Shown here piece by piece: positions 1,764 through 38,738 of a DNA stretch of 41,652 bases (within the stretch, counting starts at the first letter, position 1; each line of letters opens with the position of its first letter). A program made the position numbers and the translations under genes. The DNA lies in contig CAYUHZ010000002.1 in the NCBI GenBank assembly GCA_964444625.1, positions 3,338 to 44,989 of the forward strand, in the 5' to 3' direction. Under the pieces are notes generated by a model, which was not told the DNA's origin, did not search any database, and saw only the letters and a program-made list of their open reading frames with translations. Origin of the DNA: an uncultured Gammaproteobacteria bacterium (GTDB lineage: Bacteria > Patescibacteriota > Patescibacteriia > Patescibacteriales > GWC2-42-12).

Positions 1764-4700
1764 CTATTTATACTTATTTTTATTAAACCCGGTACCAGCA
1801 GGAATCGGACGACCAATGATAACATTTTCTTTCAAGCCCTCTAGTCTGTCTATTTTACCCGTTAAACTGGCGTCAATCAGCACCCTGGCGGTCTCTTGAA
1901 AAGAAGCGGCTGACAAAAAACTGTTGGTAGTGAGTGATGATTTGGTAATTCCCAAGAGCAACAATTCCCCTTTAGCTTCTTTTTTGCCGAGCTTTTTAGC
2001 TGCTACATTACTTCGGTCAAAAACCGCTTTTTCAATAATTTCACCCGGCAACAAGTCGGTTTCCCCCGCGTCAATGATGTACATTCTGGAAAAAACCTGC
2101 CTGGCGATTATCTCAATGTGTTTATCGTTTAACGGTTGGCCTTGAGAAGAGTAGACATATTGAATTTCCTTAATAATGTATTTTTGGGTGCTCAATTTGC
2201 TCTTCAGTTTATACAACTGCTGCAAATCAAGACTGCCTTCTGTCAGTTGATCTCCAATTTTTACTTCATCGCCATCTTTTACCCAAATGCCAAAACCCTT
2301 GGGAACAATAAACTCTTTAATCCTCTCCGCTTCGGTTGTTACCTTGATATATTTATCTTCTAGTTTTACTTTACCGCCACGTTTAGCTTTGAAAAATTTA
2401 TCTCCTACCGAAAAAAGGTCCGCTCCCTTGGGACATTCGGAGCCGTCTTCCACTAAAATTTTAATTTCCGGCTTTTTCTTGTTTTTATTTTCCAATTGCC
2501 ACTCCTTAACACCTTCAGCGATGAAATACTTGTCCGCATCAGTGCCTTGATAATTTATCTTAATAATTTTAGCCTGAGAATTGCTAACAATGGTTTTGCC
2601 TTTTTCGTCTTCAATCACCCGCTGGCCCGTTTCTACCGTCACTTTGCCTGCCACATCAGCTACAAAAGCTTTTCTTTTTGGCATGCGGCACTCAAAAATC
2701 TCATCTACTCTGGGCAAGCCTTGGGTTATGTCTTCTTGGGCCACGCCTCCGGTATGGAAAGTTCTCATTGTCAACTGCGTTCCTGGTTCGCCAATTGATT
2801 GAGCGGCTATAATGCCGACAGCGGTACCGAGCTTAACTTCTTTATTGTAAGCCAAGTCATAGCCATAACACTTGGCGCAAACTCCCCTGTTCAATTTACA
2901 TGATAAAACCGACCTGATCTTGGCTTGACTGATATCCTCTTTGGAAATTTGAACAAAAATTTCATCAGTAACCAATACGCCTGATTTAGCCAGTACTTTA
3001 CCCAAGGAATTCACCAAATCATCAACCAAATAACGTCCAACAGTTCTTTTTGCTACGGTCAAACCCATTTCTTCGCTTTCTTCCTTGGTAATAGTCAATC
3101 CTTCGCTATCCTGGCAATCATCTTCTGTAATAACTACGTCTTGGGCCACATCTATCAAGCGCCTGGTCAAATAACCGGCATTGGAAGTTCTTAAGGCGGT
3201 GTCTGATAAGCCTTTGCGAACGCCATGGGTGGCGATAAAATATTCCAAGACATCAAAACCTTTTTTAAAATTACCCTTTACTGGCAATTCAATAATTTCA
3301 CCGCTAGGCGAAGTAACCAAACCTTTCATTCCCAAAATCTGGGTAAGCTGCGCCCAACTGCCTCTGGCGCCAGATTCAATCATTGAATAAACCGGACCAT
3401 CTTTAGATAAACCGACTTTGCAAATATCAGTTACCCGCTCTCTTACTGAAGTCCACAGTTCAATTATTTTGCTGTATCTTTCGCTATCGGTCAACAAACC
3501 ATCGTTATATTGCTCTTGGATTTCATCGGCTTGGAAATTAGACTGTTCGATTAATTCTTCTTTATCTTGCAATCTAGGCAGATCATCCATGCCCCAAGAC
3601 AAACCGCTCCTGGTTATATAATTGAAACTAACATCCTTAAGTTCGTCCAAAAAATCCACCGTTCGTTCTTCGCCGTAAAAATGCAAGCAATCCTTAACAA
3701 TGCTTTTCAGCTTTCCCTTGCCTACCACTTCATTCACATATTTTAATTTTTCCGGCAGGACATCGTTAAAAATTATTTTACCGATAGTCGTTCTAACAAG
3801 TTGGCCATCATCAAATTTGACCATAATCGGCTCTCGCAAATCAACTTTATCCAAACTATAGGCATATTTTGCTTCCAGCAAAGAAGAAAAATGTTTTAAT
3901 TCTTTGTCGGCTTTGGCGGTCGCTTTTTCACTAGTCACATAAAACGTGCCCCAAACTATATCTTGCCCGGGAGCAACCACCGGATCTCCGGTAGCTGGTT
4001 TTAACAAATTGTGCGAAGCCAACATCAAATCACGGGCTTCCGTTACAGCCTCTTCCGTCAACGGGACATGAACCGCCATTTGGTCTCCGTCAAAATCAGC
4101 GTTAAAGGCAGCGCATACCAAGGGGTGTATTTGAATGGCTAGACCCTCGATCAAAACAGGACGGAAAGCCTGAATGCCCAGACGGTGAAGGGTTGGAGCG
4201 CGATTCAACAAAACAAACGCTCCCTTGATAATCTCTTCTAAAATATCCCAAACCTCATCGTGGCCGGCTTCAATATAACGAGAAGCGCTGCGCACATTAT
4301 GGACAATTTCTTGTTGTATTAGTTTGCTGATAATAAAAGGCTTAAATAACTCCAGCGCCATCCTCTTCGGCAAACCGCATTGGAATAACCTCAATTTCGG
4401 GTTTACCACGATTACGCTACGTCCGGAATAATCGATTCTTTTTCCTAATAGATTCTGCCTGAACCTGCCTTGCTTTCCTTTGAGCGAATCAGCCAAAGAC
4501 TTGAGCATTCTTTTTTGCCCGGTTGAAGCCACCACCGTCTTACCGTGCCTGACGGAGTTGTCAATCAAAGCGTCAACCGCTTCCTGCAACATTCTTTTTT
4601 CATTGCGGCAAATAACTTCCGGAGCGTTTAATTCTACCAACTGTTTCAATCGGTTATTGCGATTGATGATGCGGCGATATAAATCATTGAGATCCGATGT

Positions 4701-5708
4701 GGCGAAACGTCCCCCGTCCAAAGGAACCATCGGACGTAAATCAGGAGGAATTACTGGCACCACATTTAATACCATCCACTCCGGCCTGATATTGTTGGCT
4801 TGTAAATTTCTTAACAATTTCAAACGACGGATCAACTTGTCTTTTTTGGAATCTATTGCTTCACCGGTTAATTCTTGTTCCAGCTCTCCGATTAATTTAG
4901 GCAAATCAATACGTTCAAGCAATTTTCTTACCGACTCGGCTCCGATACCGGCGGTAAAAATATGGCCATATTTCAAGCTTAAATTTTGGTAATTACTTTC
5001 AGAAATAATTGTCAAAGGCTTGAGTTCTTTTAACTCTTTCAACGCTTGGTCAAAGGCCTTGTCCAGGTTATCAATTTTTTCGTCCTTGGCTTGCTCCAGG
5101 GCCTCAATTTCTTTATTAACTAGCTGATCTATTGACAACTCGTCCTTGCCTTGTTGCATTAATTTGCCTTTCTTGCTCTTTATTTCTTGGGTCTGCCTGG
5201 AAAAATCGCCTTCAATGCTTTTTTTCTTATTTTTGTATTCCTGTTTTACTTGTTCGATAGTCGCTTGCCTTAATTCTTCATTTACATCGGTAATGATGAA
5301 ACTGGCGAAATAAACCACTTTTTCCAAAGCCTGCATAGACAGATCGAGCGCCAAACCGATCTTAGAAGAAATACCGCGCAAAAACCAAATATGCGTACAT
5401 GGGGACTGAAGGGTAATGTGCCCCATTCTTTCACGACGAACTAAGCTGCGAGTTACCTCCACTCCGCATTTATCGCAAATAATACCCTTATAACGTATCT
5501 TTTTATACTTACCGCAATAACACTCCCAATCCTTTGACGGACCAAAAATTCGTTCGCAAAATAAACCGTCTTTCTCTGGTTTTTGCGTGCGATAATTAAT
5601 GGTTTCCGGTTTGACAACCTCGCCATAAGACCAGCTTAAAATATCGTCAGGCGATGCCAATTTTAATTTGATGGCATCAAAATCGGTAGTTTTTATTGGA
5701 TTCATCAT
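1764..5708 (-). CDS. rpoC: DNA-directed RNA polymerase subunit beta'
   Basis: 1314 aa. Zn-finger CYCGKYKKIRYKGIICDKCGVEV, catalytic NADFDGDQMAVH, trigger-loop and bridge-helix regions recognisable. Confidence 0.98.
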   Translation of the reverse strand: MMNPIKTTDFDAIKLKLASPDDILSWSYGEVVKPETINYRTQKPEKDGLFCERIFGPSKDWECYCGKYKKIRYKGIICDKCGVEVTRSLVRRERMGHITLQSPCTHIWFLRGISSKIGLALDLSMQALEKVVYFASFIITDVNEELRQATIEQVKQEYKNKKKSIEGDFSRQTQEIKSKKGKLMQQGKDELSIDQLVNKEIEALEQAKDEKIDNLDKAFDQALKELKELKPLTIISESNYQNLSLKYGHIFTAGIGAESVRKLLERIDLPKLIGELEQELTGEAIDSKKDKLIRRLKLLRNLQANNIRPEWMVLNVVPVIPPDLRPMVPLDGGRFATSDLNDLYRRIINRNNRLKQLVELNAPEVICRNEKRMLQEAVDALIDNSVRHGKTVVASTGQKRMLKSLADSLKGKQGRFRQNLLGKRIDYSGRSVIVVNPKLRLFQCGLPKRMALELFKPFIISKLIQQEIVHNVRSASRYIEAGHDEVWDILEEIIKGAFVLLNRAPTLHRLGIQAFRPVLIEGLAIQIHPLVCAAFNADFDGDQMAVHVPLTEEAVTEARDLMLASHNLLKPATGDPVVAPGQDIVWGTFYVTSEKATAKADKELKHFSSLLEAKYAYSLDKVDLREPIMVKFDDGQLVRTTIGKIIFNDVLPEKLKYVNEVVGKGKLKSIVKDCLHFYGEERTVDFLDELKDVSFNYITRSGLSWGMDDLPRLQDKEELIEQSNFQADEIQEQYNDGLLTDSERYSKIIELWTSVRERVTDICKVGLSKDGPVYSMIESGARGSWAQLTQILGMKGLVTSPSGEIIELPVKGNFKKGFDVLEYFIATHGVRKGLSDTALRTSNAGYLTRRLIDVAQDVVITEDDCQDSEGLTITKEESEEMGLTVAKRTVGRYLVDDLVNSLGKVLAKSGVLVTDEIFVQISKEDISQAKIRSVLSCKLNRGVCAKCYGYDLAYNKEVKLGTAVGIIAAQSIGEPGTQLTMRTFHTGGVAQEDITQGLPRVDEIFECRMPKRKAFVADVAGKVTVETGQRVIEDEKGKTIVSNSQAKIIKINYQGTDADKYFIAEGVKEWQLENKNKKKPEIKILVEDGSECPKGADLFSVGDKFFKAKRGGKVKLEDKYIKVTTEAERIKEFIVPKGFGIWVKDGDEVKIGDQLTEGSLDLQQLYKLKSKLSTQKYIIKEIQYVYSSQGQPLNDKHIEIIARQVFSRMYIIDAGETDLLPGEIIEKAVFDRSNVAAKKLGKKEAKGELLLLGITKSSLTTNSFLSAASFQETARVLIDASLTGKIDRLEGLKENVIIGRPIPAGTGFNKNKYK

Positions 5709-5739: not shown

Positions 5740-8700
5740 TTAAGGCTTCTCTTTTTTTTCTTCGCTGGGGCTGAAATTAGCCTGCTCGGAAAATATGTTA
5801 GGAGGCCTTTCTTCTTCTATCTTTTCCAATTCTACCAAATTGCCCTCGGCATCCAATAAGCTAACATCCAAACACAAACCCTTTAACTCCCGTATCAAAA
5901 CGTTAAAAGATTCCGGCACGTTCAATTTTTTTATCTGCTCGCCCTTGATAATCGCCTCATAGGCCTTGCTTCTTCCCGGCACATCGTCGGATTTAATTGT
6001 CAAAATTTCTTGTAAGGTATGGGCTGCGCCGTAGCCTTCGAGCGCCCAAACTTCCATTTCGCCAAATCTCTGTCCGCCAAACTGGGCTTTGCCGCCCAAG
6101 GGCTGTTGCGTGATCAGAGAATATGGGCCGATTGAACGTTGGTGTATTTTGTCTTCAACCATATGATTCAATTTCAACATATACTTGTAGCCAACTGTGA
6201 CTTTATGCTCAAAAGAATCGCCAGACTTGCCGTTATAGAGGGAAACCTTGCCGTCTTCTGGCAAACCAGCCTTCGCTAACAGCTGTTTAATATCTTCTTC
6301 TCTTATGCCGTCTAACGACGGAATAGCGACTTTGATGTTTAATTTTCTCGCGGCAAAACCTAAATGTGTTTCCAAGAGCTGACCCAAGTTCATGCGAGAA
6401 ACAATACCCAAGGGAGACAGGACGATATCAACTGGCGTACCATCTTCCATATAAGGCATGTCTTCAATCGGCACGATTTTTGAAATTACACCCTTGTTGC
6501 CATGACGACCAGCCATCTTGTCTCCGACCTGAATTTTTCTTAAATTCGCCACTGTTACCTGGATCGACTGAATCACTCCGGCCGATAGCTTATCGCCTGC
6601 TTCTCGTGAAAAAATCTTCACATCAACCACTTTGCCATGTTCTCCGTGCTCAAGGTACAAAGAGGAGTCGCGGACATCTTTGGCTTTCTCGCCAAAAATG
6701 GCGCGTAACAATTTTTCCTCAGCCGAAAGCTCAGTTTCGCCTTTCGGAGTGATTTTACCCACCAAAATATCTCCACTTGAAACTTCAGCGCCGATCCTCA
6801 CAATCCCCTTTTCGTCCAAATCTTTTAATTTTTCGTCGCCAATATTGGGAATATCGCTAGTCACCAGCTCTGGACCAAGCTTGGTGTCGCGTACGTCAAT
6901 CGTATAATCTTCTATGTGAATCGAAGAAAAAACATCGTCTCTAACCAATCTTTCGGAAATAACAATCGCATCTTCGTAGTTAAAGCCCTCCCAAGTCATA
7001 AAAGCCACCAATACATTGCGTCCGAGCGCCAATTCGCCTTTATCAATAGCTGAAGCATCGGTTAAAACTTCGCCTTTTTTTACTTCTTGGCCTTTAAAGA
7101 CAATCGGTCTTTGATTGATGCAAGTTGATGCGTTGGATCGTAAAAATTTATTCAGTTTATAACACTTGCTCTTATCGTCTTTATCTCTCACTTCAACGCA
7201 AGAACTCTCTACTTTTGAAATAATTCCGCCTGATTCAGCAAGAACAATATGTCCGGAATCACAAGCCGCTTTCATTTCAATGCCAGTTCCGACAATGGGC
7301 GACTCGGCAGAAATCAGAGGCACCGCCTGACGTTGCATATTAGTTCCCATCAATGCCCTGATGCCATCATCATGCTCTAGAAAAGGTATCAACGAAGTAG
7401 CAATCGAAACAATTTGATTGGCGGCAACACCGATATAATCAATATTGCTCACATTATCGATTGATGGTTGCCCGTATTTTCTGACTTCTGTTTTTTCTAC
7501 CAAAAAATAACCGTTATTATCGATCGGGGTGGTAAAAGAGGCGGTGATGCATCTTTCTTCTGCGAATGCTTCTAAAAATACAATTTCATTGGTAACTATG
7601 GGCTTAATCGGTATGGTTACATGGCCCAATTTTCGTTGCAACTCTTCGGCGGCTTGCCTGGTAATTATTTCGCCTGCCGCAATAAGAAGTTTCCCGGGCT
7701 GACCGTCTTTAATTTCAAATATATCTTCTCTAGTAATTTTATTTGTCGTGATCTCTGGATTATTTTCAACGTCATGCAGCACAACACGATATGGCGATTC
7801 AATGAAGCCATAGCTATTTACTCTGGCGAAACTTGCAAGATGACCGACCAAGCCAATATTCGGGCCTTCGGGAGTGGCAATTGGGCAAATGCGCCCGTAG
7901 TGAGTGGTGTGAACATCGCGCACTTCAAAACCAGCTCGCTCACGAGTCAGTCCGCCCGGCCCCATAGCCGATAATCTCCGCTTATGCTCCAATTCCGCCA
8001 AGGGGTTAGTCTGATCCATAAATTGAGATAACTGTGAAGACATGAAAAACTCCTTGACCACGCTGATTACCGGTCTAGCGTTAATCAATTTATTCGGAGT
8101 TAAACTGTCCAGATCGATAATGCTCATCCGGTCTTTGACGATTCTTTCCATGCGCGCCAAACCGACTCTAAATTTGTTTTGAATCAATTCACCGATTGCT
8201 CTGACACGGCGGTTGCCCAAATGATCGATATCATCTTCTTTGCCTTGAGTAATATTCAGCCTAATAACTTCGGAAATAATAGCGATTAAATCTTCGCATC
8301 GCAAAACTCTGGTTTCTTTGTTGTTTGGAATGTCAAAATTAAATCTTTTATTCAATTTATACCGGCCGACTCGGTCAAAATCATAGCGATCAAAGCGGAA
8401 AAACATTGAATGGATCAACTGCCTAGCGTTATCGGAAGTGGCTAAATCACCCGGCCTGATTCTCTTGTAAACTTCCTTCAAGCCCTCGGCTTCATTTTTA
8501 GCAACATCCTTGGCAATAGTGGAATTAATATAGCTAGTCTCGCCGTCAAGATCCACTTCTTGAAAAAGTTGCTTCAGCTCTTCATCACTGGAAAAACCGA
8601 AAGCTCTGAGTAAGGAAGTGATAGCCACTTTTCTCTTGCGATCAATTCTCGCCCAAATCACATTGTTGGAATCGGTTTCTATTTCAACCCAAGCACCTCT

Positions 8701-9180
8701 GTTGGGGATAATCTTCGCTCCATAGTATTTGCGCCCCTTGATAAATTCTGAAGAAAAAATAACGCCCGCGCTACGTATCAGTTGAGAAACAACCACTCTT
8801 TCAATGCCGTTTACGATAAAAGTTCCGTTCTTTGTCATCAAAGGAAAATCGCCCAGAAAAACTTCCTGCGCCAACGCTTGCTCGGTTTTTTTGTTTACCA
8901 GCCGCGCCTTGACCCTCAGCGAAGCTTCAAAAGTTATATTTTTCGCCTTACATTCAGCTTCGTTGAATTTTGGCTCGTCTAAATAATAATCTTCCAAATA
9001 TAACTCTAGATCGCGACCGATAAAATCGGTGATCGGAGATATTTCGTCAAACAGATCGGCCAAACCTTCGTCCATGAACCAACAGTAAGAATCTTTTTGT
9101 ATCTCTATCAAGTCAGGCAATGGCGTACTGACGGTTGTTTTGGCCAGATACTGCCGTGGATTAATTTTCGTTTGTGACAT
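5740..9180 (-). CDS. rpoB: DNA-directed RNA polymerase subunit beta
   Basis: Conserved blocks present: GPNIGL, MGTNMQRQAVPL, NYEDAI, GRHGNKGV and others. The ORF track starts at a TTG at 9207. I prefer the ATG at 9180 (MSQTKINPRQYL), so the start is uncertain by 9 codons. Confidence 0.96.
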   Translation of the reverse strand: MSQTKINPRQYLAKTTVSTPLPDLIEIQKDSYCWFMDEGLADLFDEISPITDFIGRDLELYLEDYYLDEPKFNEAECKAKNITFEASLRVKARLVNKKTEQALAQEVFLGDFPLMTKNGTFIVNGIERVVVSQLIRSAGVIFSSEFIKGRKYYGAKIIPNRGAWVEIETDSNNVIWARIDRKRKVAITSLLRAFGFSSDEELKQLFQEVDLDGETSYINSTIAKDVAKNEAEGLKEVYKRIRPGDLATSDNARQLIHSMFFRFDRYDFDRVGRYKLNKRFNFDIPNNKETRVLRCEDLIAIISEVIRLNITQGKEDDIDHLGNRRVRAIGELIQNKFRVGLARMERIVKDRMSIIDLDSLTPNKLINARPVISVVKEFFMSSQLSQFMDQTNPLAELEHKRRLSAMGPGGLTRERAGFEVRDVHTTHYGRICPIATPEGPNIGLVGHLASFARVNSYGFIESPYRVVLHDVENNPEITTNKITREDIFEIKDGQPGKLLIAAGEIITRQAAEELQRKLGHVTIPIKPIVTNEIVFLEAFAEERCITASFTTPIDNNGYFLVEKTEVRKYGQPSIDNVSNIDYIGVAANQIVSIATSLIPFLEHDDGIRALMGTNMQRQAVPLISAESPIVGTGIEMKAACDSGHIVLAESGGIISKVESSCVEVRDKDDKSKCYKLNKFLRSNASTCINQRPIVFKGQEVKKGEVLTDASAIDKGELALGRNVLVAFMTWEGFNYEDAIVISERLVRDDVFSSIHIEDYTIDVRDTKLGPELVTSDIPNIGDEKLKDLDEKGIVRIGAEVSSGDILVGKITPKGETELSAEEKLLRAIFGEKAKDVRDSSLYLEHGEHGKVVDVKIFSREAGDKLSAGVIQSIQVTVANLRKIQVGDKMAGRHGNKGVISKIVPIEDMPYMEDGTPVDIVLSPLGIVSRMNLGQLLETHLGFAARKLNIKVAIPSLDGIREEDIKQLLAKAGLPEDGKVSLYNGKSGDSFEHKVTVGYKYMLKLNHMVEDKIHQRSIGPYSLITQQPLGGKAQFGGQRFGEMEVWALEGYGAAHTLQEILTIKSDDVPGRSKAYEAIIKGEQIKKLNVPESFNVLIRELKGLCLDVSLLDAEGNLVELEKIEEERPPNIFSEQANFSPSEEKKEKP

Positions 9181-9543
9181 AGGTTTATTATTGCGCCCTA
9201 ACCCCAAACCTTGAGTGAAAAAATTTATCCGAAATAAAAAACCTCATTTGCTTTTTGCAATGAGTTGAATCTATTTCTTTAATTTAAGAGGTCTGCGACC
9301 AAAACAGGAGTTTTTTTAAACACTCTTTTGGAACTTAATAAATAAAGCGGGCAAGAAGCATGGATTATTTTGCAAATATTTAATAAATTAAAATTTAAAA
9401 GAAAAAATGTAGAAAAACAAAAATCAGCTAACTAGCGAATAAACACCGTGTTATTTCAGTTTCTATTTTTTATTTATGATATATTTAATACTAATGTTTT
9501 ACAAATCTTAATTTATACTAACAATATTTTTTTTGCTTGTCAA

Positions 9544-9567
9544 GGGGTTGTATTAGGGGTTGTATTA
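9544..9567 (+). repeat. Perfect tandem direct 12-mer GGGGTTGTATTA x2, 12 nt upstream of the secE-operon -35
   Basis: ggggttgtatta at 9544-9555 and again at 9556-9567. G-runs are rare in this AT-rich spacer. Confidence 0.9.
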
Positions 9568-9579
9568 GTCAGTAAAGTA

Positions 9580-9608
9580 TTGACAAAATTTACCTATTAA
9601 GATATTAT
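9580..9608 (+). promoter_or_regulatory. Sigma-70-type promoter for secE-nusG-rplK-rplA
   Basis: TTGACA (9580-9585), 17-nt spacer, TATTAT (9603-9608). It lies ~60 nt upstream of the secE ATG. Confidence 0.6.
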
Positions 9609-9667
9609 TATAATAACAATCAAATAAGCGGCCGCCAAGGCTGTTTTTTAATAATCAATAAATATAT

Positions 9668-9868
9668 ATGGAAAAAATAGTTAATTATATCAAGGCTTCA
9701 ATCGAGGAAATGAAAAAAGTTACCTGGCCGACTAAAAAAGAGACTTACAACTATACCATGTTGGTTATAGGCATTAGCCTGGGTGTAGCGGTTTTTCTGT
9801 GGGGTTGCGACAAATTATTTGAATTTGGCCTGCAATACATCATAACTAACCAAACTCTTTTTAATTAA
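9668..9868 (+). CDS. secE: Preprotein translocase subunit SecE
   Basis: 66 aa. IEEMKKVTWPTKKET followed by a single TM segment. Position directly upstream of nusG. Confidence 0.9.
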   Translation: MEKIVNYIKASIEEMKKVTWPTKKETYNYTMLVIGISLGVAVFLWGCDKLFEFGLQYIITNQTLFN

Positions 9869-9911
9869 TAAAAACTACCTGCGATTTGGCAGGAAGCTTT
9901 TACCATTTTTT

Positions 9912-15878: not shown

Positions 15879-17399
15879 ATGGAAAATAAATACGATGTTA
15901 TTATCGGACTAGAAATACATGCGGAACTAAAAACAAGGACAAAAATGTTTTGTACTTGCGATAATAATGCTACCGACAAAGAGGCAAACACTACCGTTTG
16001 TCCGATTTGCTTGGCCCATCCCGGCACCCTGCCAGTGCCAAACCTACAAGCGATTGAGTGGACCATTTTGCTGGGCTTGGCGCTTCATTGCCAAATAAAT
16101 AAATTATCAAAATTTGACCGCAAAAATTATTTTTATCCCGATCTGCCGAAAGGATACCAAATATCGCAATTCGACCTGCCGATTGCTTATGGCGGTTATC
16201 TGGAAGTAGCTAATGAAAAAATAATGATCACGCGCATCCATCTAGAAGAAGACACTGGAAAATTGCTCCATCCGGCTGGTAAAAATTATTCCCTGGTAGA
16301 TTACAACCGAGCTGGAACGCCGTTGATTGAAATGGTTACCGAACCGGTGATCCGCGACGCTACGACTGCCAAAAATTTTTGCCAAGGTTATCAGCAAATT
16401 TTGCGCTATCTAGGAATATCTGAAGCCGACATGGAAAAGGGAGAGATGCGCTGTGAGGCTAATGTCAGCATTCAGGAAAAAAATCGCTGGGAATATCTTG
16501 ACGGCCAAATCAAACCGAAAGAAAATTATCGCCTCAATCCCAAGATTGAATTAAAAAATATTAATTCCTTCAAAGCGATGGAGCGCGCTATCGACTATGA
16601 AATAAGGCGCCAAGAGCAAGCTTTAGCTGATGGAGAAAAATTATTACAAGAAACGCGAGGCTGGAACGACGACAAATCCATAACCTTCAGCCAAAGAATC
16701 AAGGAGACATCAGCTGATTACCGTTATTTTCCCGAACCCGATATACCACCGCTGGCGATAAACGATGAATGGATAGAAAAAATAAAAGCCAACTTAGTTG
16801 AACTGCCCACAGATAAAGCCAAAAGATTTCGCGACGAGTATCTATTCAGCCAAAATGAGGCCAAGATTCTTGCTCAAGACAAACCACTTGCGGATTTTAC
16901 CGAACAAACCATCTCAGAACTATGTTCATGGATTATCGCCAACGGAGACGATTGGGAAAGACAAAAAAACAAACTTGCTAAAATCACCGCTAATTGGCTG
17001 ATAAATGAACTATTCAAGCACCTTAAAGCCGAAGGTCAAGACGTTAAAAATCTAAAAATCACCCCGGAAAATTTTGCCGAACTTGTTTGTTTGATTTACC
17101 AGGGAAAAATCAATTCTTCTGCCGGTCAAACAATTCTTGCCGAAATGTTCAAACAAGGAGGCGATCCCACGGATATAATGTCTGACTTGGGATTGGAGCA
17201 AATTGATGACCTGACCCAACTTGAAGTAATCATCGAGGGTATCGTTGAACAAAACCCGAAACAAGCCGAACAATTTCGCCAAGGAAAAGAAAATATTTTA
17301 CAATATTTTGTCGGACAAGCTATGGCAGCCACCAAGGGCAAAGCGAATCCAAAATTAGTTTTAGAATTATTAAAAAAAATCTTATTTCTTAAAAATTAA
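15879..17399 (+). CDS. gatB: Asp/Glu-tRNA(Asn/Gln) amidotransferase subunit B
   Basis: 506 aa. YDVIIGLEIHAEL, VCPICLAHPGTLP, RIHLEEDTGK, and a C-terminal YqeY-like tail. gatC and gatA are not adjacent. Confidence 0.96.
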   Translation: MENKYDVIIGLEIHAELKTRTKMFCTCDNNATDKEANTTVCPICLAHPGTLPVPNLQAIEWTILLGLALHCQINKLSKFDRKNYFYPDLPKGYQISQFDLPIAYGGYLEVANEKIMITRIHLEEDTGKLLHPAGKNYSLVDYNRAGTPLIEMVTEPVIRDATTAKNFCQGYQQILRYLGISEADMEKGEMRCEANVSIQEKNRWEYLDGQIKPKENYRLNPKIELKNINSFKAMERAIDYEIRRQEQALADGEKLLQETRGWNDDKSITFSQRIKETSADYRYFPEPDIPPLAINDEWIEKIKANLVELPTDKAKRFRDEYLFSQNEAKILAQDKPLADFTEQTISELCSWIIANGDDWERQKNKLAKITANWLINELFKHLKAEGQDVKNLKITPENFAELVCLIYQGKINSSAGQTILAEMFKQGGDPTDIMSDLGLEQIDDLTQLEVIIEGIVEQNPKQAEQFRQGKENILQYFVGQAMAATKGKANPKLVLELLKKILFLKN

Positions 17400-18329
17400 A
17401 AATTTTCTGATAACTTTTTCAATTTCATCATAACTATCAAGCCAAAATATTTTCCTCCCCTGCTTTTCCCAACGCCTGAACCAAGTCATTTGACGTTTGG
17501 CAAATTGTCTGATGGCAATATTCAATTGCTTAATCAGTTCTTCATAACAAATCTTTTTCTGCAAATACCTGCTTACAAAACGATATTCCAAACCGAAACT
17601 ATCAAGACGTTGCCAATCCAGGCCATTTTGGTGTAAATTTTCAACCTCTGATACTAGCCCTTGTCTTTCTAACCGCTGGCTCAATCTGTCTGCTATTTTT
17701 TGTTTTAGCTCTTCCCTATCGGGCGCAAGTCCAATCAATAAACAATCATATTTTGGATTCTGTTTAGAAATGTTTTTAATCTTATCGCCCGCCTTAAGGA
17801 TCTCTAAATATCTCACTAAACGACGTTTGTTTTTTCTATCGCTTTGACTTATTTTTTTTGCTAAATCGGGAGATAATTTTTTTATCTCTTCAAACAATGC
17901 TCTATCAGTTTTTTGTTCTAAGGTTTTCCGCCTATTCCAATCAGGGTTAACGGGGGTAAGCAAATAATTGTCAACGATAGCTTGCAAGTACAAACCGCTG
18001 CCACCTACCAAAATAGGCAATTTGCCGCGCTGTAAAATATCATCAATCGCCTTGAAAGCTAATCTCTGATAATCGGCTAAATTAAAATTCTGGTCAGGCG
18101 TTGCAACATCGATCAAGTAATAAGGCACGTGCGAAAGTTTATCAGTTTTTATTTGATACTCTTGTTTATCCTTACCCGTGCCAATATCCATGCCGCGATA
18201 AACTTGCCTGGAATCAGCACTGACAATCTCGCCATTAAACTTTATTGCCAAAGCAACGGCTATTTTTGTTTTACCGCTGGCCGTAGGACCGATAATTGCT
18301 ATTATTTTATTTTTATTTATTTTTTTCAT
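17382..18329 (-). CDS. miaA: tRNA dimethylallyltransferase
   Basis: 315 aa. IIGPTASGKT, SADSRQVYRGMDIGTGK, and GGSGLY. Its 3' end overlaps the gatB 3' end by 18 nt (convergent genes). Confidence 0.95.
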   Translation of the reverse strand: MKKINKNKIIAIIGPTASGKTKIAVALAIKFNGEIVSADSRQVYRGMDIGTGKDKQEYQIKTDKLSHVPYYLIDVATPDQNFNLADYQRLAFKAIDDILQRGKLPILVGGSGLYLQAIVDNYLLTPVNPDWNRRKTLEQKTDRALFEEIKKLSPDLAKKISQSDRKNKRRLVRYLEILKAGDKIKNISKQNPKYDCLLIGLAPDREELKQKIADRLSQRLERQGLVSEVENLHQNGLDWQRLDSFGLEYRFVSRYLQKKICYEELIKQLNIAIRQFAKRQMTWFRRWEKQGRKIFWLDSYDEIEKVIRKFLIFKK

Positions 18330-29747: not shown

Positions 29748-31012
29748 GCTTGTTTGGTATATTTTAACAACACGTTAATCAGTTCGTCAATTTTTATTTT
29801 TTCCGATTTATCGCTGTTGCGGCGCTTCAATTCGACGCAATCTTCGGAAAGGGTCTTTTCACTGACAATCAGGCGAAGCGGACAACCGATCAAATCAGCT
29901 TCAGCAAACCTCTCTCCAGCGCTGACATTTTCACGATCGTCATAAAGCACTTCGATATTTGATTTTACCAAAAAATTATACAAAAGATCGACAGTATAGT
30001 GAATTGAAGAATTATTATCCTTAATCGCTAGCAGATGAACCTGAAAAGGGGTCACTTCTTCCGGCCAGATGATTCCTTTATCATCGCGATTCAACTCTAC
30101 AATCGTACCCATCAATCTCTGCAAGCCGATCCCGTAACAACCCATGGCAACAGTTTGTTTGACTCCGCTTTTGTCTAAATAAGCTAAATCAAACGGAGCG
30201 GAGAATTTGTTCATCAGCTTAAAAATATTGCCAACCTCAATTGATTTTGCCTGCTTCAAATCTTTGTTGCCGCATTCGGGGCACGATTCTCCAACTGCTT
30301 CAATTATTTCTTTGTTGATCGCCACTTTACATTTATCGCATAGATAAATACTGTCTTCGCCGGCCGCGGTTAGAGTTTGAAATTCATGAGAATACTTGCA
30401 AAAAGCTCCGCCAGAGGCATAAGTCAAATAAGTCTTATCGCCGATACCGCAACGCCAAAAAATACTATAGTAAGCTTTTTTCATTTTTTCATAATAAATT
30501 TCCAAATCAGTAATATCGGCATGGAACGAATAAAGGTCTTTCATAATAAATTCTCGTCCTCTAATCAAGCCTGATTTCGCCCTTTTTTCGTAACGAAATT
30601 TATTTTGAAATTGAAAGATATGCTTGGGCAAATCCTTGTATGATCTGATAAAACGTTTAGCGAGCGGAACCACAATCTCTTCATGGGTGGGTCCTAACAC
30701 CATATTTTTATCTTCGCCTTCAAATCCCAAACACACCAAAGAATCAAAATTTTCCCAACGTCCTGTTTTTTCCCAGTTTTCTTTCGGTTGCAAGCTTGGC
30801 AGCAAAAGCTCCTGTCCGCCCATTTTAATCATTTCATCCCTGATAATATTTTCGATTTTTTTCTCCACCAAGAGTCCGAGCGGCAACAAGCTATACACTC
30901 CCGCCATCAATTTATCAATAAAACCACCACGATAAAGCAGTTTGGCGTTTAAACTAACCTCATCCTTCGGATCATCTTTGATAGTCTTGGTAAAAAATTG
31001 GGATTGTCGCAT
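29741..31012 (-). CDS. proS: Prolyl-tRNA synthetase, bacterial-type core without the INS editing domain
   Basis: 423 aa. MRQSQFFTKT..LLYRGGFI..GVYSLLPLG, motif 2 FRYEKRAKSGLIRGREFIMKDLYSFH, and motif 3 GCYGIGLQRL. A Cys4 mini-insert (CDKC..x15..CPEC) sits where INS normally lies. Confidence 0.93.
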   Translation of the reverse strand: MRQSQFFTKTIKDDPKDEVSLNAKLLYRGGFIDKLMAGVYSLLPLGLLVEKKIENIIRDEMIKMGGQELLLPSLQPKENWEKTGRWENFDSLVCLGFEGEDKNMVLGPTHEEIVVPLAKRFIRSYKDLPKHIFQFQNKFRYEKRAKSGLIRGREFIMKDLYSFHADITDLEIYYEKMKKAYYSIFWRCGIGDKTYLTYASGGAFCKYSHEFQTLTAAGEDSIYLCDKCKVAINKEIIEAVGESCPECGNKDLKQAKSIEVGNIFKLMNKFSAPFDLAYLDKSGVKQTVAMGCYGIGLQRLMGTIVELNRDDKGIIWPEEVTPFQVHLLAIKDNNSSIHYTVDLLYNFLVKSNIEVLYDDRENVSAGERFAEADLIGCPLRLIVSEKTLSEDCVELKRRNSDKSEKIKIDELINVLLKYTKQAC

Positions 31013-31095
31013 AAATTTAGAAAACTAAGATTAGCAATAAATTCGCTATTCTGTTTTTATTAAAATTTAATTTATAAAAGTGGATTCTATCTACT

Positions 31096-31124
31096 ATTGT
31101 AATTAAAAAAAGCTAAAAAGTCAA
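31096..31124 (-). promoter_or_regulatory. Sigma-70-type promoter for proS-mreBCD-PBP2
   Basis: On the minus strand: TTGACT (31124-31119), 17-nt spacer, TACAAT (31101-31096). It lies ~85 nt upstream of the proS ATG. Confidence 0.6.
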
Positions 31125-31169
31125 AAAAGTGTATTTGTGGCTCTACAATAAATAGTGTGGCGGAAAGCC

Positions 31170-31236
31170 AAAAAGCAGCGGTAAAATTAGCTTGAATATC
31201 GAGTTTCTCAACTCAAAGCTAAAATTAAGCACCGCT
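31170..31236 (-). terminator. Long nested hairpin plus U5 on the minus strand, closing the upstream accessory unit before the proS promoter
   Basis: Three nested stems: agcggt (31177-82) / accgct (31231-36), agctt (31189-93) / aagct (31216-20), and gagtt-tctc-aactc (31201-14). On the minus strand GC then TTTTT follows (plus-strand A5 at 31170-74). Confidence 0.5.
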
Positions 31237-31509
31237 TCTATGAAAAAAATGTATCAATGAAATGCTAAATTTGGCTCCAATGATAACGTTTTGTATTATA
31301 TCAAATAAGCCATTCTGTTAATTTTCAATTGAACATATTGGCATCATCTAACAATATTTCGTTCCGGTCAATAAACTCTTCTTGTATTGTGGCAGTGTCG
31401 CTAAACTTTAAGCAAAATTCAAAAATAACCGCTAAAATTAGCTTTTTAAGCGTTAAAAAATCTAAAAAATTAGTGCTAATGTTAATCATTGGCGACAGTC
31501 CTATATAGC

Positions 31510-31543
31510 AAAAAACCAATGGTATGAGAAACGTTGGTTTTTT
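31510..31543. terminator. A/T-flanked hairpin, bidirectional terminator-like
   Basis: aaaaaaccaa (31510-19) / ttggtttttt (31534-43) with a 14-nt loop. Confidence 0.45.
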
Positions 31544-31554
31544 GTATTTATATC

Positions 31555-31923
31555 AAAAAACCCGCGCCGTTAAAAACAAACGCGGATCGGGCAGGGTGCA
31601 CACCCTGTATTGAAAAGAGTGAAAAGCGACCCTGCAACTCAAAAATTTTCAGGAAAGCGGGCCGATCGGAAGGATATTTTCTATTCTTCGGTTTCGATTC
31701 CTCTGAATCGCGATTGTCTTCTCAGGCGTGTTCTTGGAACGACGCGGAGATCTGGCTGAGTATCAAAGGAAACGTCTTTCCTAATGCATTCAAAGGCGAT
31801 TCTTCTTTCTGATTTCATGCACAAGAGGGGGGGGAGAAGAGGCGCGCCAGGAGGGGGACTCCTTGCCAGCCGATCGCGGAAATAGCGCCGCTTTCAACGG
31901 GGGTTAGCGCCTCTTCTCTTTTT
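31555..31923 (-). ncRNA. Candidate structured noncoding RNA of unknown class (GC-rich, ORF-poor, hairpin-dense island); strand assignment tentative
   Basis: Sharp rise in GC compared with its flanks, and no ORF of 60 aa or more on the minus strand. A perfect 12-bp stem gagaagaggcgc (31834-45) / gcgcctcttctc (31907-18) encloses sub-hairpins aggag-gggga-ctcct and gcgg..ccgc. Further hairpins are cgattc-ctct-gaatcg and aggaaa-cgtc-tttcct. On the minus strand it ends in a ccgcg/cgcgg hairpin plus U6 (A6 at 31555-60). It begins 5 nt after the stop of the upstream minus-strand gene. It matched none of the RNA classes I could test by eye. Confidence 0.5.
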
Positions 31924-32274
31924 TTATTTTTCTGGATAAGGTTCTACCAAGAGAACGCCATTCAAAAATTTAAGCCAGACGCTGTTTCCCAGGTAAAACG
32001 AGTTGCTTTTCTTCTTCACATGCTCCGGAATGGTCACGCGGAAAACTGTGAACCTTCCTTGTTTACTTGTTCTGACCTTGATCGCCAGATATTGTTGCCC
32101 TGTTTTTTTGATTGGCTTCTTGAAAGCAATCATCAAGCACCCGTCGCAACCTCTTTGGCTCAAAAACACTTCTTGTTCATCTATAATTTTTTCTCTCCTG
32201 ACAATCTCTGGTGGTATGGTTAGTCTGTTTTTAATATCAATTCTCGCTTTGTTCTGATAATAATAAATAACCAT
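31924..32274 (-). CDS. Orphan MraZ-like / tandem AbrB-SpoVT-fold small DNA-binding protein
   Basis: 116 aa from the ATG at 32274. A perfect AGGAGG sits at 32287-32282, 7 nt upstream. Two half-repeats resemble the MraZ DxxxR units: ARIDIKNRLTIPPEIVRR and TSKQGRFTVFRVTIPEHVKK. It is not next to rsmH, ftsL or ftsI. Confidence 0.65.
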   Translation of the reverse strand: MVIYYYQNKARIDIKNRLTIPPEIVRREKIIDEQEVFLSQRGCDGCLMIAFKKPIKKTGQQYLAIKVRTSKQGRFTVFRVTIPEHVKKKSNSFYLGNSVWLKFLNGVLLVEPYPEK

Positions 32275-32323
32275 CAATTAACCTCCTTTAATGCTGGATA
32301 TAGTATAATGATCTGTTTGCATT

Positions 32324-32351
32324 ATCTTACCAAAAAACCAAAAACTGTCAA
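32324..32351 (-). promoter_or_regulatory. Strong sigma-70-type promoter for the MraZ-like gene
   Basis: On the minus strand: TTGACA (32351-32346), 16-nt spacer, TAAGAT (32329-32324) preceded by TGG (extended -10 like). Confidence 0.6.
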
Positions 32352-32412
32352 GAAGCAGTCTTTCAAAGTCTCTTGAAGTTAAAATCTTCAAATGGAGCCT
32401 TTGTAAATTACC

Positions 32413-32430
32413 CTGCGGCAGAGACCGCAG
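32413..32430 (-). terminator. Weak terminator-like hairpin after secF
   Basis: ctgcgg-cagaga-ccgcag, located 53 nt after the secF stop. The U-tract is poor. Confidence 0.35.
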
Positions 32431-32482
32431 TGTGAATTATTTATATAACAACAACTTTCAAAATCATTGCTTAATTCACCCA

Positions 32483-33397
32483 TTATGCCCTTTTTCTCCC
32501 CCATTGCTCCCATAAAACAAGCAAAGGAGATGCCACGAAAACAGAACTGTATGTTCCGATAAAAATACCGAATGCCATGGCAAAAGCAAAAATCTTAATT
32601 GATTCCCCGCCAAAAAGAATGATAGCGCCAAGAGCCAGGATAACTGTCAAGGAAGTATTGATGGATCTAACTAAAGTCTGGTTGATGCTGGTGTTAATAG
32701 TGTTCTCAAAATCTTCGTTGCTGCGCGGCAAATTTTCTCTGATTCTGTCAAAAACAATGATTGTGTCATTGATTGAATAGCCCAGAACGGTTAAAATTGC
32801 GGCAACGAAGGGCGTGTTCACTTCTACGCCGAAAAATTTTCCCAATACCGCAAACAAACCAAGGGTAATGATGATATCATGAAACAAAGCGACCAAAGCG
32901 GAAATCCCGTACTTAAAAGAACTGACCGGCTTGGAAACTTGGCGAAAAACCCAGGCGATATAAATTAATATTCCCAGCAAAGCGAAAAATATGGCGTAAA
33001 CAGCCTTGCGCTTCAATTCCAAACCGATTGAGGGTCCTACTGAATCAAATCTCAATTCTTCAAGCTGATTTTCATTATTAATTTCGGAAGCTAGTTTGTT
33101 TAAGCTGGACATAATCGAATCCTTGATGGTCGGCTCGGTTTGTTGAAAGCGTAAAATTAAGGCGTTGGCATCTGACGGCTGTATAGACAAGCTATTTAAT
33201 TTCAGATCGGCTAGGCTCTTCTCCGCTTGCGCTACGGTTGGAACATGCTGACTAAACTTAACTTCAAGCAAACTTCCGCCGGTAAAATCAATTCCAAAAC
33301 GAAGACCCCAAACAGACAGGGCAACGATCGAACTAACGAACAAAACAGACGAAACCCCCAGCCAAATATTCCTTTGTTGAATGATTCTTAGGTTCAT
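32483..33397 (-). CDS. secF: Protein translocase subunit SecF
   Basis: 304 aa. GIDFTGGSLLEVKF, and an RND-like TM bundle with SINDTIVVFDRIRE. Confidence 0.95.
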   Translation of the reverse strand: MNLRIIQQRNIWLGVSSVLFVSSIVALSVWGLRFGIDFTGGSLLEVKFSQHVPTVAQAEKSLADLKLNSLSIQPSDANALILRFQQTEPTIKDSIMSSLNKLASEINNENQLEELRFDSVGPSIGLELKRKAVYAIFFALLGILIYIAWVFRQVSKPVSSFKYGISALVALFHDIIITLGLFAVLGKFFGVEVNTPFVAAILTVLGYSINDTIIVFDRIRENLPRSNEDFENTINTSINQTLVRSINTSLTVILALGAIILFGGESIKIFAFAMAFGIFIGTYSSVFVASPLLVLWEQWGRKRA

Positions 33398-35864: not shown

Positions 35865-38738
35865 TTACTTTCCGCAACACTTCTTGTATTTTTTTCCGCT
35901 GCCACACGGGCAAGAGTCATTGCGGCCGATCTTATTCCCTTCTTTGTCTTTGGCTTTTTCTTTTACCAAATCAACGGTTTTCGGCTGATTGGAAGATGGC
36001 TCTTGCTTGAAAGCCGAAAATGACCCGCTTTGCTTGTCCATTTCCTTGGCCGGAGCGGAAAGCACTTGCTGTCGATCAAGCAGGCTGGGCGAGAAAAACT
36101 GTCCTGCTTCCGCAATTTTAAAAATGCTATAAGCCACTTCTTTCTGAATGAGGTTGTTCAATTCGCTGTACAACCGATAAGCTTCGCGCTTGTATTCCAC
36201 CAAGGGATCACGCTGGCCGTAACCGCGCAAACCAATGCCGCGCCGCATATAATCAATCGCTTCCAAGTGCTCAACCCACAGCAAATCAATCGATCTTAGC
36301 AAAACCGATTTTTCCACCTGTTGCCAGTCCAAGCCGACTTGACTGATCTTATCTTTGATCTGGCGATAATAATCATCGGCTAGAGCGGAAAATTTCTCAA
36401 TCATGGCGGTTCTCGCCATCACTTTATCCAATTTGCCCGAATCACCGGTCAGATCGGCAATATCTGCTTTGACTTGCTCGTTAACGGGGAAAATAGTAGA
36501 CATGACTTGATTGATTTCTGCGATATTCCACTCTCTCATTGATTCTGCCGCTGTATGAAAACTGACAACCTGTTCTATCTCGTCTTCCACCATTTCTAAA
36601 ATTATTTTTGATAAAGTTTTTTTGTCCTGATTTTCCGTGTTTTCGCCAGCGGAAGATTCATTGTCAAATCGATCTTCCATTGGCGACTCCAACCTCTCTG
36701 ACAGCTCCAAGATCTCTCTGCGCTTTTTATAGATGCCTTCGCGATGCTTATTCAAAACATCATCATATTCCAACAAGTGTTTGCGAGTATCAAAATTGTT
36801 GCCTTCAACCTTCTTTTGGGCTGATTCAATTGACTTGGAGATTATATTGTTTTCAATCGGCAAGTCTTCGGGCACGCGCAACGTCGCCATGATATTCTTC
36901 ATCCGGTCACCGCCGAAAATTCTCATCAAATCATCCTCCATGGAGACATAAAACTGGCTTGATCCGGGATCGCCCTGGCGCCCGGCGCGCCCGCGCAACT
37001 GATTGTCAATTCGCCTGGATTCATGGCGTTCGGTACCGATAATATGCAATCCGCCGCAAGCAAGCACCCGGGCCCGTTCCTCCGCCCACGCTTCGTGTTC
37101 AGGCGAATCTTTGGCCGGCTCTCTGCCGCCTAACATAATATCAACGCCGCGTCCAGCCATATTGGTCGCAATCGTCACTGCGCCAACCTTGCCGGCATCG
37201 GCAATGATCTGTGCTTCTTTCTCGTGGTGTTTGGCGTTGAGTATCTGGGGCTGAACTCCTTCGCGCTCCAGCATTTCCCCCAGCAATTCGTTTTTTTCAA
37301 TTGATATCGTGCCAACCAGCACCGGCTGTCCGGTCTGATGAAGGCGTTTGATTTCCTGGATTACCGCCTTGAACTTCCCCATTTCACTGCTGTAAATCAA
37401 GTCATTGAGATCAAGCCTGGACATTGGCCGGTTAGTGGGAATTATAATGGTATCCAAATTATAGATCTTATAAAATTCTTCCGCTTCGGTCACGGCCGTA
37501 CCGGTCATGCCGGCCAGCTTGCGGTACATGCGAAAATAATTCTGAAAAGTAACGGTGGCCATGGTCTGTGATTCGCGTTGGATCTTGACGCCCTCTTTGG
37601 CTTCAATCGCCTGATGCAATCCTTCGCTATAACGCCGTCCATGCATCAGACGTCCGGTAAATTCATCCACGATGATCACTTCGCCTTCCTTAACCACATA
37701 GTCACGGTCGCGCTTGAATAAAGTCATAGCCTTCAAGGCCTGTTCAATATGATGAACATCTCTCATGCCCCCTTCGGCATAGATATTTTTGACTCCCATC
37801 ATTTTTTCCAGCTTGGCGATTCCCGACTCGGTCAAAGTCGAGGCGCGCATCTTCTCGTCAATATTATAATCCTCATTCTCCGCTAGGTGTTCTACCAATT
37901 TGGAAAAAGTGTAATATTTATCGGTTGATTCTTCGGCAGCGGAACTGATAATCAAAGGCGTTCTAGCTTCGTCAATCAAGATTGAATCAACTTCATCCAC
38001 GATGGCGAAATTTAGCTCGCGCTGAACCATTTTGGCCAAATCAGGCGACATATTGTCGCGCAGGTAATCAAAACCGTATTCGTTATTCGTGCCATAGGTA
38101 ATATCTGCTTGGTACGCTTCTTTTCGGGAAACCTGCCTCATAATGTCTCCGGTTTGAGATTTAGAAATTTCTTCATTGGAATTTGAAAATTGAAAATTAT
38201 TTGCATTACCCAATAAATGAGCGGCTTCGTGGGTAATGCACCCGACAGATAATCCAAGAAAGCTATAAATCATTCCCATCCACTCTGCATCACGCCTGGC
38301 CAAATAGTCGTTGACCGTGATCACATGAACGCCGCGGCCGGTCAAGGCGTTAAGATAGACAGCCAAGGTGGCGACCAGTGTCTTGCCTTCTCCGGTGCGC
38401 ATTTCAGCGATCTGTCCGCGATGCAGCACTATTCCACCGATCAGCTGGACATCATAGTGGCGCTGGCCGAGCACGCGCTTGGCTGCCTCGCGCACAATCG
38501 CAAAAGCCTCGGGCAAAATTTCCTCTAATGCCGATTTTATCATTTCATCTTTGTTTTCTTCCTGGCTGGCTTCTATAGCCTTAAAAACGCCTTGATATTC
38601 AAAGGTTTTGGAGCGCAGATCCTCATTGCTTAAGTTGGAAAACATCTCTTCCAAACCGTTAATTTTCTCAACTAGCAAACTGAGTTCGCTTATTGTCTTT
38701 TCGTTTGGATCGCCGAAAATTTTACTAAAAAATCCCAT
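35865..38738 (-). CDS. secA: Preprotein translocase ATPase SecA
   Basis: 957 aa. MRTGEGKTLVA Walker A, DEVDSILIDEARTPLIIS, TNMAGRGVDI, and C-terminal CPCGSGKKYKKCCGK zinc motif. Confidence 0.98.
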   Translation of the reverse strand: MGFFSKIFGDPNEKTISELSLLVEKINGLEEMFSNLSNEDLRSKTFEYQGVFKAIEASQEENKDEMIKSALEEILPEAFAIVREAAKRVLGQRHYDVQLIGGIVLHRGQIAEMRTGEGKTLVATLAVYLNALTGRGVHVITVNDYLARRDAEWMGMIYSFLGLSVGCITHEAAHLLGNANNFQFSNSNEEISKSQTGDIMRQVSRKEAYQADITYGTNNEYGFDYLRDNMSPDLAKMVQRELNFAIVDEVDSILIDEARTPLIISSAAEESTDKYYTFSKLVEHLAENEDYNIDEKMRASTLTESGIAKLEKMMGVKNIYAEGGMRDVHHIEQALKAMTLFKRDRDYVVKEGEVIIVDEFTGRLMHGRRYSEGLHQAIEAKEGVKIQRESQTMATVTFQNYFRMYRKLAGMTGTAVTEAEEFYKIYNLDTIIIPTNRPMSRLDLNDLIYSSEMGKFKAVIQEIKRLHQTGQPVLVGTISIEKNELLGEMLEREGVQPQILNAKHHEKEAQIIADAGKVGAVTIATNMAGRGVDIMLGGREPAKDSPEHEAWAEERARVLACGGLHIIGTERHESRRIDNQLRGRAGRQGDPGSSQFYVSMEDDLMRIFGGDRMKNIMATLRVPEDLPIENNIISKSIESAQKKVEGNNFDTRKHLLEYDDVLNKHREGIYKKRREILELSERLESPMEDRFDNESSAGENTENQDKKTLSKIILEMVEDEIEQVVSFHTAAESMREWNIAEINQVMSTIFPVNEQVKADIADLTGDSGKLDKVMARTAMIEKFSALADDYYRQIKDKISQVGLDWQQVEKSVLLRSIDLLWVEHLEAIDYMRRGIGLRGYGQRDPLVEYKREAYRLYSELNNLIQKEVAYSIFKIAEAGQFFSPSLLDRQQVLSAPAKEMDKQSGSFSAFKQEPSSNQPKTVDLVKEKAKDKEGNKIGRNDSCPCGSGKKYKKCCGK

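Follow-up and report, generated by a model that had tools for sequence, protein, structure and literature searches.

In an AT-rich genome, a long non-coding stretch of high GC content is a classic signature of selected structured RNA. Must such a stretch be an RNA gene? The question is raised by an island at positions 31555-31923 of a 41,652-nucleotide (nt) piece of DNA from an uncultured bacterium (the window; positions 3,338 to 44,989 of contig CAYUHZ010000002.1), which a preliminary description made from the letters alone had put forward as a candidate novel structured RNA following an orphan mraZ-like gene. The reading favoured here, to which we assign a probability of about 0.5, is that the island is lineage-specific non-coding DNA that now trails a relocated mraZ-like gene as an untranslated 3' stretch of ~370 nt. 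The island is unlikely to be an RNA gene in its own right, and its high GC content is best explained by recent arrival in a rearrangement associated with insertion sequences (IS), not by selection for RNA structure.

The GC jump that first drew attention to the island was borne out: its GC content of 0.507 lies in the top 1.6% of 370-nt windows (window mean 0.406), compared with 0.306 for the other intergenic DNA and 0.416 for coding DNA. The left ~20 nt (31555-31575) are part of a decayed transposase-fragment copy and fall outside the GC-rich core, which spans 31576-31923 on the minus strand and combines high GC content with negative coding tests and the lack of a protein or Rfam match. A GC peak in this genome does not by itself point to an RNA gene, since the window maximum (0.58, at 36800-37340) is inside secA and its translation is the conserved motor domain.

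The island is non-coding. It had been called poor in open reading frames (ORFs), a description that needs amending in that a mechanical 92-amino-acid (aa) ORF on the plus strand (31534-31812) spans most of it, but that stands in that this ORF carries no coding signal. Coding scores of the island were negative in all six frames under a 3-periodic Markov model trained on the window genes, for which true-frame coding windows average +9.5 bits, and its period-3 power (0.85 versus a shuffle mean of 0.74) was at the level of shuffles and under all 69 coding controls. Six-frame translations returned nothing credible from Pfam, NCBIfam, PHROGs, PADLOC or a plasmid tblastn search; a sub-threshold match to DUF6302 was judged to be due to chance.

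Searches against RNA families agreed with the preliminary description in assigning the island to no known family. Rfam 15 (4227 models) gave no gathering-level match in the whole window, and in sensitive mode (E up to 10, positions 31000-32400) the best score was 25 bits versus a threshold of 55, on an AT-rich terminator and not on the island. The RsaE/RoxS model RF01820 was absent from the island matches even at E up to 10, the T-box model RF00230 had no match near the island or proS, and ARAGORN found no tRNA or tmRNA in the window. Possible integron attC, retron, T-box and RNase P motifs were rejected on inspection by eye.

Folding better than chance is confined to two parts of the island. 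On the minus strand, a predicted three-way-junction stem-loop (31826-31926) begins 5 nt beyond the stop codon of the mraZ-like gene (31924-31926); the junction is closed by a perfect 12-bp inverted repeat (31834-31845/31907-31918) with two nested hairpins inside. Measured against dinucleotide shuffles, as were all fold z-scores here, this segment has a minimum free energy (MFE) of -43 kcal/mol and a z-score of -4.37, with 0 of 200 shuffles equally stable; the plus strand scores -2.90. Both the MFE and the centroid folds leave three C-rich tracts unpaired, as had been supposed: UAACCCCC in the junction, the UCCCC loop of the AGGAG/CUCCU hairpin and a C8 tail. The AACCCCC tract and the AGGAG-UCCCC-CUCCU hairpin are present on the minus strand, and the C8 corresponds to a G8 homopolymer (31827-31834) that abuts the closing stem and is the sole G/C run of at least 7 in 41.6 kb (~0.24 runs of at least 8 expected). 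Three G runs of at least 5 occur within 77 nt, out of 18 G/C runs of at least 5 in the window. The 12-bp stem, the C-rich tracts and the G8 run lie where the preliminary description placed them. Its further suggestions, that the G8 run might be prone to slippage or might contribute to a G-quadruplex, are speculative.

The other region of above-chance folding is the terminator zone at the far end. The central ~200 nt are excluded: positions 31655-31760 have z-scores of -1.4 (minus) and -0.1 (plus), no better than shuffles, and 120-nt windows slid along 31600-31800 give values between +0.3 and -2.0. For the whole island the z-score is -2.81 (minus strand) or -1.37 (plus strand), and the island lacks the low folding energy along its full length that marks structured RNA in general. 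The term hairpin-dense therefore suits 31826-31926 and the terminator zone, which beat shuffles, but not the centre, which does not. The case for a structured RNA gene comes down to composition and one stable domain, with a middle that folds like its shuffles.

Promoters and terminators favour the minus strand, and with it a 3' untranslated region (UTR) of the mraZ-like gene, a possibility already raised in the preliminary description. A promoter scan placed promoters directed at the island on the minus strand alone, and none of these is internal to it; together with U-tracts that follow hairpins in the minus sense and the stronger minus-strand z-scores, this argues for transcription in that direction. 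No plus-strand promoter faces the island, the sole plus-strand candidate (31271-31299) lying upstream of a bidirectional terminator. The putative promoter of the mraZ-like gene and its trailer, TTGACA-16-TAAGAT (with TG; 10 of 12 matches), is at 32324-32351 on the minus strand. At the other end, a predicted hairpin directly before a U6 tract forms an intrinsic terminator for the minus-strand transcript (31590-31555), with its 3' arm and U-tract within the decayed IS-fragment copy B described below. A simple scanner did not list this terminator, the irregular predicted stem of which is probably outside the scanner's stem and loop limits. As the preliminary description had noted, two further terminator-like hairpins follow: an inverted repeat at 31509-31544, a candidate bidirectional terminator lying in the 31500-31575 IS copy, and a long AT-rich hairpin followed by U5 (31165-31236, minus strand). 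The latter folds with a z-score of -3.18 on the minus strand versus -0.99 on the plus strand (sliding-window z -4.8) and is situated upstream of the proS promoter.

What the preliminary description missed is the lineage-specific nature of the region, an insertion in which transposase debris is found. Prolyl-tRNA synthetase (ProRS) places the host in the Patescibacteria (candidate phyla radiation, CPR), with 61% identity to the best GTDB representative, and one closer relative was found among 5.8 billion proteins (contig L081, ProRS 82% identical). The neighbouring genes of the window are all on the minus strand, in the transcription order secA, (spacer), secD, secF, [insert], proS, mreB, mreC, mreD and the PBP2 gene. 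On L081 the order is SecD-SecF-163 nt-ProRS. Junction alignments show that the secF end and the proS promoter region (31126-31013) are common to both, and that ~1.35 kb (~31127-32470) present in the window is absent between secF and proS in L081. The proS promoter identified by scanning, TTGACT-17-TACAAT (31096-31124, minus strand), is conserved in L081 (alignment with 3244-3356) and marks the insertion edge at ~31127. At the edges of the insert, candidates for terminal inverted repeats and target duplications amounted to short AT-rich matches at chance level. Within the insert lie a short MraZ-family gene, intact and with a strong promoter and a Shine-Dalgarno sequence of its own, the non-coding GC-rich core, and an IS481-family transposase 3' fragment in one and a half decayed copies. 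A lineage-specific insertion with transposase debris makes a non-functional explanation of the foreign-looking GC available, and if the segment arrived recently, this GC would need no selection.

The trail to the transposase began with a faint Pfam rve_3 match in the AT-rich spacer. Tblastn, profile and nhmmer searches identified the decayed 3' remainder of an IS481-family (rve/DDE) transposase gene, truncated at its 5' side, at 31245-31440 on the minus strand, the clear part of which (31390-31274) encodes 'TIQEEFIDRNEILLDDANMFN*KLTEWLI*YNTKRYHWS' with two in-frame stops. This fragment matched plasmid loci annotated as IS481 family transposase (tblastn E 9e-7), shares 62-79% identity with the transposases that IS copies in Patescibacteria encode (E ~1e-16), and was recovered over 31390-31274 by a profile of 43 full-length transposases (independent E 2e-16) and at the DNA level by nhmmer (E 2e-16, about 31245-31440). 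The matching IS copies are multi-copy in several Patescibacteria metagenome-assembled genomes, e.g. JBMNFW01 and JBDRCJ01. IS481 homology extends weakly to 31500-31575 (minus strand), where local alignment revealed a second, more decayed partial copy (copy B) with a score of 43 versus 26.4 +/- 4.2 for block shuffles, none of 500 reaching 43. In a diagonal test, an offset of 251 had the highest identity among all offsets (z ~4). Copy B has the same in-frame TGA as the 31245-31440 fragment, so the duplication came after pseudogenisation. The two copies belong to a partial tandem duplication of some age, offset by ~251 nt, which pairs 31500-31575 with 31245-31322 and also 31164-31193 with 31415-31444.

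That the IS fragment is still 79% identical in protein sequence to live copies elsewhere suggests that the rearrangements are not ancient, and on these alignments the spacer is a patchwork left by IS-associated rearrangement. The island is bordered by a transposase 3' fragment and its partial duplicate, which contribute to its terminator and represent a Patescibacteria-resident IS481-family lineage; in contrast, the GC-rich core (31576-31923) has no DNA or protein similarity to 80 IS loci or to the 43-transposase profile, and nor does the rest of 31000-32500. Two further candidates were rejected after the profile of 43, BLASTP and hhalign gave nothing: a second transposase remnant at 32385-32308 (tblastn E 0.3-0.7) and an apparent match to the transposase N-terminus over the mraZ-like gene. 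A 64-aa hydrophobic ORF (31325-31519, minus strand) scores only marginally as coding (0.8-4.4 bits per 120 nt) and is probably not a gene, since it lies largely over the transposase fragment.

The gene upstream of the island on the minus strand (31924-32277) encodes a 117-aa protein that has no Pfam match on its own. An exhaustive HMMER scan recovered four short relatives and a profile search recovered 25. PF02381 was matched by 23 of 24 aligned family members, the exception being the window protein itself, and the family profile matched solved MraZ structures with an E value of 8e-6. A single-sequence AlphaFold2 model was uninformative (predicted local distance difference test score, pLDDT, 42), and the alignment-based model reached a pLDDT of 88 and had MraZ (9sz7_K) as its top Foldseek match, with a template modelling (TM) score of 0.66. 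Family profile, PF02381 and predicted structure together indicate that the gene is a genuine member of the MraZ family, in line with its earlier designation as MraZ-like. MraZ (PF02381), a protein of ~150 aa, is a regulator of the dcw cluster. The window protein resembles it in its two (R)-[LV]-T-I-P half-domains, the match of its family profile to solved MraZ structures and its predicted MraZ-like fold. Unlike MraZ, the family described here is ~115 aa long, never lies beside rsmH or other dcw genes and in the relatives is paired with a zinc-ribbon gene; the window copy has moreover been relocated and has no partner. With its promoter, its visible Shine-Dalgarno (SD) sequence AAAGGAGGT and all family-invariant residues retained, the relocated gene looks expressible.

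All relatives with context available, seven distinct lineages (L082-L096), have the gene order dUTPase-FolD-GatB-[mraZ-like]-[small gene]-<MiaA-<MiaB. The small partner gene encodes a zinc-ribbon protein of 56-73 aa (CPxC..GNAL..C..GC) and is often translationally coupled to the mraZ-like gene. The examined relatives thus carry a CPR two-gene module, a short MraZ paralogue with a zinc-ribbon protein, always between gatB and convergent miaA. ORF coordinates and tblastn with the relatives' GatB and MiaA showed that in the window gatB (15879-17399, plus strand) and miaA (17382-18329, minus strand) are convergent and overlap directly by 18 nt (17382-17399), which implies that the ancestral slot is empty and that the mraZ-like gene has been relocated. 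A dcw-head position next to rsmH was found in neither case, the window copy lying between secF and proS and those of the relatives between gatB and miaA. A hidden Markov model (HMM) of the relatives' zinc-ribbon protein found no partner in any frame of the window, and the island occupies the position where the partner gene lies in the relatives, directly after the mraZ-like gene. The possibility that a decayed zinc-ribbon partner, MiaA or GatB was carried along with the gene was rejected after negative HMM and tblastn searches.

Upstream of the gene, five of the seven distinct relatives (L085, L089, L092, L093 and L095) have the motif GCAGTTCTTT(T/G)AGAA between promoter and SD, which is probably an operator. 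The window instead has an inverted repeat, TTGAAGATTTTAACTTCAA (~32375-32393), upstream of the -35 element. The U-tract of the hairpin CTGCGGTCTCTGCCGCAG after secF (32410-32431) is weak, so secDF transcription may in part continue into the mraZ-like gene; the terminator that L081 has at this position is another and stronger one.

No relative of the island itself was found. The preliminary description had named a lack of conservation in related genomes as grounds for abandoning its claim, and conservation was not observed in any of 216 loci compared in total or in the sequence collections, with the closest relative lacking the whole segment. Nhmmer recovered no relative of the island in 80 ProRS loci or in a larger set of 136 loci, and a search with the whole insert against 80 IS-carrying loci returned the transposase fragment only. 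Blastn against phages and plasmids gave nothing. Six exact-seed scans (16-21 nt) of metagenome, genome and viral collections yielded 0 matches or chance matches in high-GC coding DNA that did not extend. A single-sequence covariance model of the three-way junction matched itself alone over 728 kb of CPR loci, and a literature search produced nothing relevant. As far as these comparisons reach, the island is a singleton outside every described family, and nothing marks it as a new class.

These observations can be combined into a working model for the trailer. Transcription from the TTGACA/TAAGAT promoter would run through the mraZ-like gene into the trailer, where the three-way-junction stem-loop 5 nt past the stop codon may act as a barrier or stabiliser near the 3' end and, on the other strand, as a block to antisense transcription. 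The hairpin and U6 at 31590-31555, plus the two further terminators, would end the transcript, and the three stacked terminators may insulate the essential proS promoter just downstream. Such an arrangement resembles long bacterial 3' UTRs of the mRNA-stabilising or insulating kind, which have a stem-loop close to the stop codon and intrinsic terminators. The island likewise comes immediately after a gene of the same strand that looks expressed, with no separate promoter found, opens with a very stable stem-loop and closes with a hairpin and U-tract. It differs from them in being unusually long and GC-rich for its genome, in lacking homologues and in lying in recently rearranged DNA.

Several points weigh against the trailer reading. 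The island does bear the signature of a selected structured RNA, being a 370-nt non-coding stretch of 51% GC in a genome with spacers of 31% GC, and no source was found for its GC-rich core. The recent arrival of the island DNA and its roles as stabiliser and insulator are inferences. Its three unpaired C-rich tracts cluster in or around one domain (3 of 18 runs of at least 5 within 77 nt), as in trans-acting C-rich small RNAs (sRNAs). The island also sits exactly at the position of the relatives' partner gene, which could hint at functional replacement. Taken to its end, the last point would make the island a lineage-specific, C-rich three-way-junction functional RNA, borne by a 3' UTR, that replaces the zinc-ribbon protein and might work as the regulator's partner or decoy or as an anti-SD sRNA; we regard this as improbable.

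Among the other explanations, a functionless relic deserves the most attention, although we consider it unlikely. The island would then be a foreign or rearranged scrap, possibly a gene fragment decayed past recognition, left by the same IS-associated events, with hairpins incidental to its GC-richness. The patchwork of transposase debris and local duplication would fit such an origin, as would the unremarkable folding of the island centre, its status as a singleton and the missing partner gene. Against it, the island has neither coding periodicity nor protein similarity in any frame, its three-way junction is far stabler than chance (z -4.4) and placed precisely at the stop codon, and the neighbouring gene is intact in promoter, SD and invariant residues, so the segment is not simply decaying. 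The sole difference between a trailer and a relic is whether the stem-loop and terminators matter. More doubtful is a trans-acting sRNA, derived from the 3' UTR or independent, in which G-rich SDs of target mRNAs would be bound by UAACCCCC, the UCCCC loop and the C8 in the manner of RsaE/RoxS. This proposal draws on the clustering of the predicted-unpaired tracts in a very stable domain, a GC content far over the spacer background, the minus-strand terminator at the 3' end and the existence of SD-led genes in the genome (AAAGGAGGT). The C-rich sRNAs of RsaE/RoxS type (RF01820) belong to the Firmicutes and have their own promoter and a compact length of ~90-120 nt ending at the terminator. The island shares with them several predicted-unpaired C-rich motifs in loops or junctions able to pair with G-rich SDs, but it comes from another phylum, is ~3-4 times longer, yielded no promoter of its own in the promoter scan, and has its C-rich domain where the trailer begins, with ~240 nt between it and the U6 terminator. 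Neither RsaE nor any other Rfam sRNA matched it at E up to 10, it is not conserved, with no homologue in the collections searched and none in the closest relative, and anti-SD complementarity is generic and cannot discriminate targets.

Far less probable is a plus-strand RNA antisense to the trailer that would end at a U7 behind the 12-bp stem, which G-U pairs would lengthen (31834-31925). The stem is indeed succeeded by TTTTTTT, with which G8 can wobble-pair, and one hairpin in the centre, GAAGGAUA/UAUUCUUC, forms a G-U pair as plus-strand RNA where the minus strand has an A-C mismatch. However, no promoter on the plus strand faces the island, plus-strand z-scores are everywhere weaker than those of the minus strand, and the 92-aa ORF is devoid of coding signal. 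The idea that the island is a diverged representative of some known class of RNA (RNase P RNA, tmRNA, 6S RNA, signal recognition particle RNA, a proS T-box, a riboswitch, a ribozyme or a guide RNA of IS/TnpB type) is largely refuted. The size of ~370 nt and the GC content fit such genes, and the island lies upstream of an aminoacyl-tRNA synthetase gene, but Rfam gave no gathering-level match and noise of 25 bits at best in sensitive mode, and ARAGORN returned no tmRNA. A T-box leader of proS would share a transcript with that gene, whereas the three terminators precede a separate proS promoter (31124-31096) that is conserved in the relative without the island. For a guide RNA, tblastn of the whole window with IS481-family transposases and Pfam searches of neighbouring ORFs found no TnpB, IscB, reverse transcriptase or intact transposase.

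Further observations concern DNA outside the island. Between the proS promoter and start codon lies a conserved near-palindrome, TAGC(G/A)(A/T)ATT(T/A)ATTGCTAAT, found at 31022-31048 in the window and at 3323-3349 in L081, which is a candidate operator or leader element. The long AT-rich spacers at 9208-9911 (704 nt) and 1-596 (596 nt), with GC contents of 0.28-0.29, had no Rfam match; the former is upstream of two very large minus-strand ORFs (5740-9207 and 1764-5708).

Taken as a trailer, the island is a cautionary case: a GC-rich, ORF-free, hairpin-bearing island in an AT-rich genome may sit in DNA that was recently rearranged and bears the scars of transposons, and a conserved RNA gene is not a necessary conclusion. 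If a functional RNA were nevertheless present, it would join the very few regulatory RNAs so far described from Patescibacteria and would have taken the place of a protein partner. The findings made alongside it may prove more useful than the island itself, namely the CPR module of an MraZ paralogue and a zinc-ribbon protein, the relocation of its mraZ-like gene in this genome and an IS481 lineage resident in Patescibacteria.

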